Assembly: GCA_945877805.1 (NCBI GenBank) | Contig: CAMCSM010000001.1 | Coordinates: 10,221-74,220, forward strand | DNA from: Methylacidiphilum caldifontis | Lineage (GTDB): Bacteria; Verrucomicrobiota; Verrucomicrobiia; Methylacidiphilales; CAMAQI01 | DNA length: 64,000 nucleotides | Reading direction: 5' to 3' | Shown here: piece by piece, positions 16,728 to 53,866 of the stretch | How positions within the stretch are numbered: position 1 is the stretch's first letter | Layout: every line of letters starts with the position of its first letter | Notes under the pieces: generated by a model | What the model was told of the DNA's origin: nothing | The model's database searches: none | Seen by the model: only the letters and a program-made list of their open reading frames with translations | Made by a program: the position numbers and the translations under genes

Positions 16728-16753
16728 CAATAATACAAGAGCTTGTATTATTG
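16728..16753. promoter_or_regulatory. candidate operator, 26-bp palindrome containing TACAA-N4-TTGTA (site 1)
   Basis: caataatacaag-ag-cttgtattattg has 12-bp perfect arms and lies directly upstream of the esterase-GH95 operon start. Confidence 0.55.
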
Positions 16754-16810
16754 TCAAATTAAAACCGCCTTATCCGATTAATCTTAGAGTAGGCCAGACG
16801 AAGTGATGAG

Positions 16811-19800
16811 CTAATCTGCGACATGCTCAACCTCAAGATCGAGCACTTTTCCGGTCTGTCGATCGATACTCGCATGCACCCAAGCACGTCGCTCTCCATG
16901 AGTCGAGAATCGACCGGTCTCTTTTGATGTTTTTCCCGTCTGACTCACAATATCAACCATGATCTGCCATGTGGAGTTACTGTGACTCTCCACCCACGAT
17001 CTCAGGACCGACTCCGACTCCTGCTTCACTTGAGAAATTGCCCCCCCCTTCTCCTGATCCATTCCGGGAAGTTTTAAGATTTGACTAGCGAAGTCGGAGT
17101 TTCGTTCGATCGATACAATGGTTTTGCTCGACTGCTCCGTAAGCTCCCGGGCTTGTGTAGAACTTAAGACCATCGGCGCCTGAGAGCGATAGTTCATAAA
17201 GGCTCCGGAGAGAATCGCCTGACGAATAGGTAGAGGCGCCTGCACAAAATCAACCCGCCCCGAGGAGATCTCCCCCTCCTCCAAACAAAAGACATCAAGC
17301 AATGGAAGATCCCCGCTCTTGTTGGTGAAAAAATCAAGAGTCTTCCCGGGAAGGTCGCGAAAGACATACCCCAACTCTCCAATCGAACGAAACGGACGGT
17401 TGAGTACCGGCGTTCTTGTCAGAAAATTTCCGGGAATCGTTGGAAAATCAGCATCATTCAAATAAGCAGCATCCCCAGGCCGAAGGATCGACGCCCCACT
17501 GGAGTCAAGTTCTGTATAACGAACGGCACTTGTCGTTCGATTAATCCATACATCTGAAATAGGAGCATTTCTATACCCCGACTTTAAACTGGAATAACTC
17601 CAAGAATTTCGGTTATTGAGCAATCCACTAAAAATATTGTTAACTAGAAAGCCCCAATTGGGCCCCCCATATACCATATCCCAATTGCTGTTGAGATTAT
17701 TTACATCTTTAGTCCATTTAGCCTGACTACGGATCGAAACCCCGGGAGTCGCCCGCGAATCAATGGGTCCCCCACTTGTGGTATTAAGAAAATGCCTATA
17801 TTGAAAACCTAACCGGGATCCCCGAGGGTCTGCTCTCATATAGGAGGCTTTCGCACTTCCTCTTTGCCAAGCACTATAAAAATTTAAAGTCGTTATGTTA
17901 AGGTTATTCACCGCATACTGTGATGAATCTACCGTATCAAAGGTGAAGGCGGTTTGCGGAGAGTCGTGAGCAATTACGCAAAAGGAGTAGTTTGAAAGAG
18001 GTAAATTCGTGACCAGCTCAAATCGTTGATAAGGAACCCATAGTGTTCCTACATAAACACCAAGCTCCATCGTAAAAGGGGTATCACTCGATAAACCGGT
18101 AATCGGCGATATTCTTTGAAATAAGAGACTCGCATAATTTCGATTTTTTAATCCTAAATCTGTCCCTCCTGAGTACGCAACACTCGGAAATGCTCCTGCT
18201 CCAGTTGAGCAGTATCTTCCTATGGCATCTACGGGCTTTCCTGCATTGGGGGCCCCCACCTTGAGAGTAATTGCAGGATCGGGAGTCGTTCGACTGGAAA
18301 TTAAAATCTCATTTTGAGCGTTGGGCGCCGTGCTTGTAGGGAGGCCCGGAAGAGAGCCAAGAACAGCGGGCTCACCAAAGGACTTTGAGCTCGGTAAGGA
18401 AAATGAAACCTGCTTTCCGGCAAAAATTGTTGATGTCGGAACATTAGGGGTCATTCCTGCATTCACCGTTAGGTACCCCCCAGTAGGAAGATTTGCCATA
18501 GCTCCCAACTCCAAATAAGACTGACCCTCGAGTAACTTCACAGATCCCGATGAAATGCTCTCTCCGCGATATCCTTTTAAAACAGAGCATGGATTTTGAT
18601 GGGGATTCCAAAGCTCAAACTGCATCCACGCTTCTGCTGATGAATTATTATTGGGACGTAAAAAATTGTATACAATTTCATTCAGATAAGGAAGATTCTC
18701 CGTTCCAATCGCCAAATTTTGATTCACAGAAGAATAGGTCTGATACCCTGAAGGCCAATTAAGAGCAATCAAGGCCGTTGACGGTTTGATTAAATCCGAA
18801 AAACCAGTCTCCACTATTGTCGGTAAATCATCGGAATCCCATTGATCGATAATATTACATCCGATTTGGAGTAAGTGAAAATCGGTCGATTGATCAATTC
18901 CGTTTCTGAGGGTCACCGTCGTGCCACTCACATAATAACTACACGCAATCCCCCCCGAAACCCCGAGACTTCCGGGAACAATCGTCGCCTTGAGCCATTC
19001 GAAGAAATCGGGCTCTCTTCCTTGACTCATCACCTCCGTCAAACTTTTGATTTTCGTCGCCGGGGTCAAACCGTTCCCCTCGGGAGAAACATAGACAAAC
19101 CGATTTTTTTGGGAATCCCATTTCAATCCAAAATGTTTTAAAATTGCCTTCTCTTTTTTGGAATCGCTGAGGCTTCCATCCGCATTTCTGGAATTAAACC
19201 AATCGAGTCGTGCTAAAGGGAATTTTCGTGCGAAAAAGGGATCCCCCTCCTCCACAACATAAGAATCCAGTGTTCCATCCACACGATAATATTCAAAGGT
19301 CCTCTTTTTTGGCGCCAGATAGGAGGTTTGAGTCAAAAGAGCGAGTTCGGGACGATTCACCGCGCTCGAATGATGTCGAAAATAAGGTTCAACCCCTTCC
19401 CCTTCATTTTCATGAATGAAATTCAAAAGATCCTGACGTCCTAAAAAAATATTCTGACCCTCTTTTAATTTTTCCTGATCCTGATAAAGTACCCCCTGTG
19501 TCGGAGTCCCTGATGAAAAAGACTCTTTCCCATAAAGCCATTTTTCATATTTTTGAGGACTCGATTCATCCGGTAAACGCCACCGGACCGCTTGATCTCC
19601 GATTTTCGAGGCCCTCTCCGAAATTTGAGTTAAATCCGCGCAGATCGTCCGTCCTCTGTACATATCGTAGCGATAGCTTTTATTCGCTTCCGGGTAGTGA
19701 GGATCGGGTCCATCCCCAAGCCTGTTAAATCCTTCCGGTTTTCCGCAAATATTCAGATCCAAAAGCCCATTCACTTGGTAGGCTAAGTAAGCATAACGAC

Positions 19801-53700: not shown

Positions 53701-53826
53701 AAGCTGTTTCATCCAGCGATCAAGTCGCTCCAAATTCCATTGCTCATCCGTCAGAAAAAATTCACGATGCGGCTCTCCCATGGGTAACTTCATATTTCCT
53801 CTCTTCCCTTTTTTGTCATGATTCAT
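50701..53826 (-). CDS. GH38 alpha-mannosidase
   Basis: 1041 aa with the blocks [11 protein letters not shown] and [25 protein letters not shown], and C-terminal GH38 beta-domains. Confidence 0.9.
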   Translation of the reverse strand: [1041 protein letters not shown]

Positions 53827-53848
53827 TAATTTAGCATATCGCCATTAA

Positions 53849-53866
53849 ATTACAAGCGTTTGCAAT
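53849..53866. promoter_or_regulatory. degenerate operator TACAA-GCGT-TTGCA (site 6) in the GH38/lacI divergent promoter
   Basis: attacaagcgtttgcaat matches 9 of 10 core positions and has a central CG. Confidence 0.45.

Follow-up and report, generated by a model that had tools for sequence, protein, structure and literature searches.

The closest described systems are repressors of the LacI/GalR family such as CcpA with its cre sites, PurR, GalR, and Cra. They combine an N-terminal LacI-type helix-turn-helix (HTH) domain with a hinge carrying a conserved leucine, bind even palindromes of 14-18 bp with AA/TT at ±3-4 and often a central CG, and have a site in their own promoter as well as carbohydrate-utilisation targets next to the regulator gene. 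Cra (FruR) and CcpA are dual regulators, which activate from positions just upstream of the -35 hexamer and repress over core promoters. According to a survey of 1303 transcription factors of the LacI family, the operators are even palindromes with a central CG for 1173 of the 1303 factors and a different or degenerate centre for a minority, 72% of the factors are autoregulated, and more than 75% of the sites are located 30-140 nucleotides (nt) upstream of a start (PMC4052901). A term search of this survey found no mention of the Verrucomicrobiota (PMC4052901), and a literature search revealed no published regulon reconstruction for this phylum. Here, we describe a stretch of 64,000 nt (64 kb, in the following called the window) of contig CAMCSM010000001.1 from Methylacidiphilum caldifontis, a member of the Verrucomicrobiota. 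The window, which belongs to an ENA metagenome contig of 83.9 kb and whose genes have relatives in Verrucomicrobiota, contains six copies of a palindrome, TACAA-N4-TTGTA, and a gene for a LacI-family regulator of 335 amino acids (aa; 53913-54920, + strand), the proposed binder of these sites. Most likely, the six palindromes are the operators of this regulator. Like the described systems, the one in the window shows the LacI-type HTH and the hinge leucine, an even palindrome, a site in the promoter of the regulator gene, and carbohydrate-utilisation genes next to it, with the sites 24-90 nt upstream of the start codons. It differs in its half-site TACAA (A/G at position 2), its degenerate S-S centre, its divergent sugar-binding domain, and a predicted regulon that holds pilin-like genes and an enzyme family for which there is no Pfam model. 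The system fits the traits found in the survey, the degenerate centre being the one atypical point.

The data show directly how often the motif occurs, where its copies lie, that they are conserved, and that they accompany the regulator gene. A pattern search of the window for TACAA-N4-TTGTA (TACAANNNNTTGTA) yields five perfect copies starting at 16734, 20416, 34177, 39875, and 42219, and allowing one mismatch adds a single copy, TACAAGCGTTTGCA, at 53851. These are the coordinates and sequences given in a preliminary description of the DNA, which had predicted a single regulon from them. Its statement that five perfect copies are far more than chance would produce is borne out, because 0.02 copies are expected and none of 100 dinucleotide-preserving shuffles contained five or more. 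Two mismatches result in 25 scattered matches; those compared with the gene list are intragenic, and together they look like background. The pentamers TACAA and TTGTA occur 35 and 43 times in the window, respectively, and five pairs are separated by exactly four nucleotides. This spacing alone is enriched, each other spacing between 0 and 12 giving at most one copy, and the inverse order TTGTA-Nx-TACAA does not occur at N4 in the window. When compared with a gene list built from the open reading frame (ORF) table and Pfam, all six site centres are at most 150 nt upstream of a start codon, and the zone so defined comprises 9.7% of the window (P ~8e-7). This agrees with the promoter-proximal placement proposed before. 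Five of the six sites are non-coding, site 5 being the exception, and the flanks of the sites are unrelated to each other except for their A/T richness.

The regulator gene encodes an HTH recognised by PF00356 (residues 5-50, E=1.4e-10, 41.2 bits compared to a cut-off of 27 bits), and residues 4-225 including the hinge align to the structures of CcpA and LacI (E=2.8e-18). All matches to the NCBIfam models for ccpA, RbsR, and PurR are below the respective equivalog cut-offs. The recognition helix is VDISTASRAL and the hinge helix RPNLLAKSLA. The hinge GYRPNLLAKSLAGG aligns with that of CcpA (GYRPNAVARGLASK), including the conserved leucine after YRPN, and is kept in all orthologues. Such orthologues, which are 35-59% identical to the LacI protein of the window and have the same residues at the recognition positions, were identified in nine independent loci (L017, L024/L032, L026, L030, L034, L055, L138/139, L140, and L141/142) belonging to metagenome-assembled genomes (MAGs) of Chthoniobacterales/Terrimicrobiaceae and to unassigned metagenome contigs; some of them carry PF13407 or PF00532. 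A tblastn search gave the orthologues in L017, L024, L026, L030, L032, L034, and L055, and a protein search gave nearer ones (43-59% identity), which share the helix VDISTxSRAL and the hinge YRPNLLARNLAGG without exception. Seven of the nine loci contain a T[AG]CAA-N4-TTG[TC]A site 17-321 nt from the regulator gene, and L026 and L030 have a weaker site at the same position. The contigs of three nearer-orthologue loci (L138/139, L140, and L141/142) could be retrieved and each has a strong site beside the gene. The neighbours of these sites vary and include GH38, SSF transporter, sulfatase, and prepilin-type (N_methyl) genes or operons. In L034, whose LacI is 54% identical to that of the window, the divergent arrangement of GH38, site, and lacI is the same as in the window (TACAAGCGCTTGCA compared to TACAAGCGTTTGCA in the window). 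The same TACAAGCGCTTGCA is located in L138/139 in a divergent region together with an SSF-rhaM-GH38-UROD-HAD operon, TACAAGCGCTTGTA is found between lacI and a sulfatase gene in L140, and TGCAAGCGCTTGTA in a gap of 44 nt between lacI and an N_methyl gene in L141/142.

A position weight matrix (PWM) built from the six window sites scores the lacI-side sites of L034, L055, L138, L140, and L141 with 19.1-22.3 bits, and those of L017 and L024 with 14.2 bits. L138, L140, and L141 were kept out of every PWM, and their scores with the window-only matrix are 19.4-22.3 bits. For comparison, matches of at least 12 bits occur at a rate of 0.018 per kb in 497 kb of unrelated, generic LacI loci, which were taken from the matches listed in a metagenome scan with the LacI alignment and are 23-40% identical in the best segment. 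The motif was also searched in 637 kb of GTDB genome loci around homologues of two giant paralogues, A and B, that are encoded in the window and described further below. These loci contain 13 T[AG]CAA-N4-TTG[TC]A sites compared to 1.1 expected. The hosts of all 13 sites are MAGs of Terrimicrobiaceae, Chthoniobacter, and Chthoniobacterales and one unclassified MAG, and in the same scan the motif is absent from the loci of Planctomycetota, Rariglobus, and Pontiellaceae. It is also absent from the A/B-family loci of genomes in which no such regulator was seen. The Chthoniobacterales-type genomes share a syntenic block consisting of site, GH38, HAD, LacI, site, SSF transporter, A/B-family gene, sulfatase, GH52-like gene, and A/B-family gene, and the LacI of this block is 35% identical to the window LacI over the full length and far closer in the DNA-binding head. 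A LacI homologue of Victivallis with another recognition helix (LSRPTVSRAL) has no site. The motif thus tracks the LacI orthologues and is missing at a homologue with a different helix, which supports the assignment of the sites to the LacI family as made in the preliminary description.

Two observations concern motif-like sequences at other places. A perfect TACAAACGTTTGTA is located 82 nt upstream of an unrelated LacI gene at L090:2939 (28% identity, 35% GC contig, helix TPSTVSRAL), indicating that the half-site is within the LacI-family repertoire of at least one other branch. In addition, a motif-like TGCAAACCTTTGCA (CGCAAACCTTTGCA in two genomes) is present about 46 nt into the 5' end of a sulfatase ORF at L024:11583, L032:11580, L026:11589, and L030:11712, and is kept in loci of both Terrimicrobiaceae and Chthoniobacter. 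This sequence could represent an operator inside the gene or reflect coding constraint.

The consensus derived from 21 sites is aATACAArssyTTGTATt, an even palindrome with fixed half-site spacing, in which C3, A4, A5, T10, T11, and G12 are invariant. Positions 2 (A/G) and 13 (T/C) vary independently across genomes, resulting in combinations such as TACAA...TTGCA, which fits recognition by a protein and not an RNA stem. A similar picture is obtained at the strain level. L004 represents a second strain from another sample, which is 98-99% identical over most of the region, and L005 is a MAG contig of the same species (CAMAQI01), which is 100% identical over paralogue A. Both half-sites of site 2 are intact in L004 while the spacer is altered (window TACAATCCCTTGTA, L004 TACAAGCACTTGTA) and the flanks are about 70% identical, and at site 4 the spacer GCCT has changed to GCGT with unchanged half-sites. 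Site 3 reads TACAAGCGATTGTA in L005, with both half-sites kept and a changed spacer, and TTCAAGCGGTTGTA in L004, with one half-site mismatch. The half-sites are thus kept while spacers and flanks change, which implies that the two pentamers are constrained and the spacer is not. L004 also contains an insertion of about 1.9 kb (L004:7897-9795) that is absent from the window and encodes a DDE transposase of 510 aa (DUF772 and DDE_Tnp_1). It is located about 100 nt upstream of site 3 with its junction at window position ~34294/34334, and a 78-bp piece beside it is 97% identical to positions 9983-10060 of the window, possibly a solo end of an insertion sequence.

The six sites are placed differently with respect to promoter-like hexamers, which were identified with a promoter scanner and a hexamer scan of our own by the same rules. 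Site 1 (16734-16747, TACAAGAGCTTGTA) is the core of a 12+2+12 palindrome at 16728-16753, as the preliminary description had seen, and is found 25 nt upstream of the ATG of a SASA esterase (16708), within the spacer and -10 of TTGACA-16-TATTAT (11/12 matches, - strand, 16757-16730, promoter scanner). Site 4 (39875-39888, TACAAAGGCTTGTA), 37 nt upstream of paralogue B, begins 1 nt past the -10 of TTGACT-16-TATTTT, and site 5 (42219-42232, TACAACCGTTTGTA), 80 nt upstream of a GH35 gene, is inside a promoter-like TTGAAA-16-TACAAT (10/12, - strand), both according to the hexamer scan. Site 5 is indeed buried in the 3' end of a MauE/DoxX-like ORF, namely in its last ~25 codons. Site 3 (34177-34190, TACAATCGATTGTA) forms a perfect 18-bp palindrome (34175-34192), again as noticed before, about 90 nt upstream of paralogue A, and is directly abutted by a TTGAAA hexamer. 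The GH38 sites of relatives begin, as read by eye, 0-3 bases past a -10-like hexamer, with TTGACC or TTGACG at 17-18 nt. Site 2 (20416-20429, TACAAGGGATTGTA) is part of a 113-nt divergent region between the gene of an 1184-aa protein (- strand) and a pseudopilin operon (+ strand), and our hexamer scan finds -35-like hexamers 9 nt away on both strands. Site 6 (53851-53864, TACAAGCGTTTGCA) is located between GH38 (- strand) and lacI (+ strand), 48 nt upstream of the ATG of lacI. Both site 2, on either strand, and site 6, on the lacI side, lie 7-10 nt upstream of a TTGAC-like hexamer with their centre near -50. The same geometry is present at the SSF-transporter sites of relatives and the GH38 site of L034, and has been kept in four or five genomes.

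Binding, repression, and the effector are what we infer from these data. A dimer of the regulator would bind aATACAA-RSSY-TTGTATt through its HTH, with VDISTASRAL as recognition helix, and through its hinge helix RPNLLAKSLA. At sites 1, 4, 5, and probably 3 the operator would overlap a σ70-like promoter at its spacer, its -10, or its start point, which implies steric repression. Protein bound there would block transcription until it is released by a sugar effector, presumably derived from a sulfated glycan with mannose, fucose, or galactose. A sulfated glycan containing mannose, a deoxyhexose, or galactose would be suggested by the genes that recur, namely those for GH38, an SSF or MFS transporter, rhaM, sulfatase, and SASA. 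At sites 2 and 6 and at the SSF promoters of relatives, where the operator is found 7-10 nt upstream of a -35-like hexamer, the regulator could either repress or activate, by occluding an UP element or in the manner of Cra and CcpA. Site 6 would also mediate autoregulation of lacI. Cra and CcpA resemble the system described here in that some operators are placed over core promoters and others just upstream of a -35-like hexamer. Unlike these, the regulator in the window appears to control a local multi-operon regulon, with no sign of activation, of a co-repressor of the HPr-Ser-P type, or of a global role. The regulon is predicted to comprise six promoter regions in a block of 45 kb, namely those of the SASA esterase-GH95 operon, the 1184-aa gene with the divergent pseudopilin operon, paralogue A and a sulfatase, paralogue B and an AraC-family regulator, GH35, and GH38 and an MFS transporter together with lacI.

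Could the palindromes be true transcription factor sites that are read by another protein, such as a LacI paralogue encoded elsewhere, the AraC-family protein encoded at 35655-36536, or a global regulator of the CRP/FNR type? FNR-type boxes are 5-N4-5 dyads as well, AraC genes adjoin the paralogue genes in the window and in L002, L018, and L138, and our view of the source genome spans 64 kb. However, it is the lacI orthologue and not the AraC gene that the motif tracks, the AraC-paralogue pairs of L002 and L003 being without a site, and the sites are directly beside lacI orthologues although the other neighbours range from GH38 and SSF to sulfatase and N_methyl genes. AraC proteins usually recognise direct repeats, and there is no CRP/FNR gene among the genes of the window. 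Another binder is thus unlikely. Less probable still is that the motif is part of a promoter, a hairpin in the 5' untranslated region, or a small repeated element instead of a protein operator. At sites 1 and 5 the -10 hexamer shares bases with the TTGTA half, but the placement with respect to promoter-like hexamers differs from site to site, some sites being located in the spacer and others past the -10 or ahead of the -35. Site 1 would be able to form a strong hairpin (-11.8 kcal/mol), but the core hairpins of sites 2 and 5 are negligible (-1.5 and -1.3 kcal/mol, z about -0.5), and the changes at positions 2 and 13 are non-compensatory; on account of these stem energies and this variation an RNA hairpin was rejected, and the only Rfam matches in the window are two tRNAs. 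A repeated element was rejected because of the unrelated flanks, which share no more than their A/T richness. A chance cluster of an A/T-rich palindrome would have been conceivable because the intergenic DNA is A/T-rich here, so that shuffles of the whole window underestimate the local expectation. Yet the few dozen pentamers of either type combine five times at exactly N4 and no other spacing is enriched, and the motif recurs beside orthologous regulators in genomes of 51-64% GC. Chance clustering is effectively refuted. Independently of these alternatives, two known site types were compared with the motif. A σ54 promoter (TGGCAC-N5-TTGCA) was rejected by eye, the GG element being absent and the spacing wrong, and a 434-repressor-like ACAA-N6-TTGT site was rejected by its spacing.

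Several points weigh against the palindromes being simple operators of the LacI-family regulator. Pfam gives no more than a weak match for the sugar-binding domain (PF00532, E=0.0026, 17.7 bits compared to a cut-off of 22.2 bits), but the alignment to CcpA structures extends up to residue 225, and PF13407 or PF00532 is present in some orthologues. The central CG, which is typical for the LacI family, is present in three of the six window sites, as the preliminary description had it, and in seven of all 21 sites, with GC in six and GG or CC in five, so that the centre is S-S. Because several sites are placed upstream of a -35-like hexamer and not over a core promoter, simple repression is not established, and promoter predictions are weak in AT-rich DNA of an unstudied lineage. 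The specificity of the motif in the source genome was judged from the 64-kb window, and other LacI paralogues may exist. Finally, the GH38 of the window (50701-53826) is, in local alignments, just 25-28% identical to the GH38s linked to the orthologues, while those at L024:751-3654, L034:671-3547, and L138:4513-7437 share 62-87% identity among themselves. The genes around the regulator are therefore analogous and not strictly orthologous. The regulator is paired with a GH38 everywhere, although the GH38 in the window belongs to a different lineage.

The annotations of the SASA esterase, GH95, sulfatase, AraC, GH35, GH38, and LacI genes given in the preliminary description have been confirmed by Pfam. 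The operon behind site 1 (10063-16708, - strand) contains the SASA-type esterase (15230-16708), GH95 (12489-15176), an ORF of 111 aa, and a 689-aa protein of unknown family, its extent being inferred from the common strand and the tight gene spacing. A homologue of the 689-aa protein adjoins GH38 and GH3 in the lacI-orthologue locus L138. The start of the 689-aa gene is overlapped by an ORF of 234 aa (9477-10181), which holds part of a HipA_C kinase domain and probably is either spurious or the fragment of a gene. Site 2 is flanked by the leftward gene of the 1184-aa protein (16811-20365, - strand), which has a pilin-like, GspK-like N-terminus, and by the pseudopilin operon (20479-22607, + strand) encoding proteins of 156 aa, 302 aa (N_methyl), and 250 aa. 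Behind site 3 follow paralogue A (30394-34086) and an S1 sulfatase (29052-30392; operon 29052-34086, - strand), and behind site 4 paralogue B (36556-39837) and the AraC-family regulator (35655-36536; operon 35655-39837, - strand). Site 5 precedes the GH35 beta-galactosidase (39988-42138, - strand), and to the left of site 6 an operon (49068-53826, - strand) consists of the GH38 alpha-mannosidase (50701-53826) and an MFS transporter (49068-50465). In the middle of the block, at 22717-28796, there is a two-partner secretion (TPS) pair without operator, composed of an exoprotein of 1387 aa with a TPS domain and an MBG domain and a divergent transporter of the ShlB/FhaC type. The region to the right of lacI (55000-62000) looks like an integrated mobile element. 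It contains an antitoxin-like gene, a weak HTH_3 gene, several unknown ORFs, and a large serine recombinase (60081-61742) that ends against a tRNA gene (61705-61777, - strand).

Full-length comparison of paralogues A and B gives 30% identity, and neither of them is related to the 1184-aa protein. The family of A and B comprises about 108 sequence clusters of proteins of ~1100-1250 aa from Verrucomicrobiota, Planctomycetota, and Kiritimatiellia, for which Pfam has no model. The neighbouring genes encode sulfatases, SASA esterases, other glycoside hydrolases, and AraC-family regulators, and the invariant motifs include EIQEIHxRR and GPDGLGGYF. Paralogue A has no sequence match to any solved structure. 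An AlphaFold2 (AF2) model of paralogue B has a predicted local distance difference test score (pLDDT) of 90 and a predicted template modelling score of 0.89. The model resembles TIM-barrel glycoside hydrolases with CBM-like domains, and its best PDB matches are multidomain glycoside hydrolases such as GH66, GH26-CBM35, GH156, and GH101. Judging from this model, A and B probably represent a new family of glycan-active enzymes.

The genes at site 2 encode a cassette of a different kind. The N-terminus of the 1184-aa protein, KRKGFALILV, is pilin-like by eye and lacks the glutamate at position +5. Profile searches gave no family match for this protein, and its AF2 model (pLDDT 51.6) is confident only for a long N-terminal helix (residues 3-78). 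Class III signal peptides (G/A-F-x-L-x-E) with an N-methylation motif are present in the proteins of 156 aa (AFSLLE, ComGE-like N-terminus, E=3e-6) and 302 aa (GFTLIE, PF07963, E=2.5e-7), and the 250-aa protein has an ordinary signal peptide. The arrangement is reminiscent of the Verru_Chthon cassette (TIGR02598/TIGR02599) and of GspH-K of type II secretion systems, in which small prepilin-type proteins are also encoded beside one very large pilin-like protein without Glu+5, and homologous cassettes are present in glycan loci of Verrucomicrobiota. Unlike in these systems, the large gene and the small ones are transcribed divergently and the scores are far below the cut-offs (Verru_Chthon model B 15.4 compared to 51.4 bits, model C 31.9 compared to 256.5 bits). 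The proteins of 1184 and 250 aa do not match the Verru_Chthon cassette models even at E<=10, and no secretin, ATPase, or platform gene is encoded in the 64-kb window. The likeness to Verru_Chthon is an architectural resemblance, not membership.

For the 1184-aa protein 16 homologues have been found, and in the two readable loci (L143 and L144) three small genes are followed by the large one, with N_methyl matches in two of the small proteins of L144. Both cassettes are part of glycan loci with SSF transporters, BNR sialidases, SASA, GH2, and GH32. The motif is absent from both loci and a lacI orthologue was not seen in their gene tables, so that they are neutral concerning the regulation of the cassette. 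The preliminary description had included the cassette in the regulon. In favour of this, the half-sites at its promoter are kept in L004 although the flanks are about 70% identical; this evidence comes from a single species. An independent case is L141/142, where the gene immediately behind the operator at the lacI orthologue is of the prepilin type. Pilin-like genes that appear to be under this group of regulators have thus been seen twice, the giant cassette itself in one species and two strains. It could be possible, although we propose this tentatively, that the regulator couples the pilin-like cassette, consisting of the giant GspK-like protein and minor pseudopilins, to the enzymes for one sulfated glycan. 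A precedent for pilus-type machinery together with glycan-degrading enzymes in Verrucomicrobiota is Akkermansia muciniphila, whose mucin utilisation locus (MUL) genes code for pili and for periplasmic complexes that mucin uptake requires (as summarised in PMC12418764). In contrast to the MUL, the link here consists only of the shared operator and the neighbourhood. Literature searches on the Verru_Chthon cassette, on LacI regulons of Verrucomicrobia, and on pseudopilins with sulfatases found nothing relevant.

What is new is the orthologous group together with its motif from uncultured Verrucomicrobiota; the kind of regulator and its mechanism are well known and conventional. The noteworthy part is the content of the regulon with its unannotated enzyme family and pilin-like cassette. 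A well-supported pair of operator and regulator would provide a handle to predict which genes act jointly on one substrate in uncultured freshwater glycan degraders. It would also place two unannotated families in the context of glycan degradation, one being that of the giant paralogues with their TIM-barrel-like fold and the other the pilin-like protein of 1184 aa together with its cassette, and would offer a testable case of co-regulation of pilus-type genes with glycoside hydrolases and sulfatases. If the coupling of the cassette were true, the pseudopilus tips built by Verrucomicrobiota would be specific for a substrate and would serve its capture, import, or secretion, which would be a counterpart to the SusC/D logic of Bacteroidota and to the MUL pili of Akkermansia. 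This would also provide the first functional context for the family of paralogues A and B.

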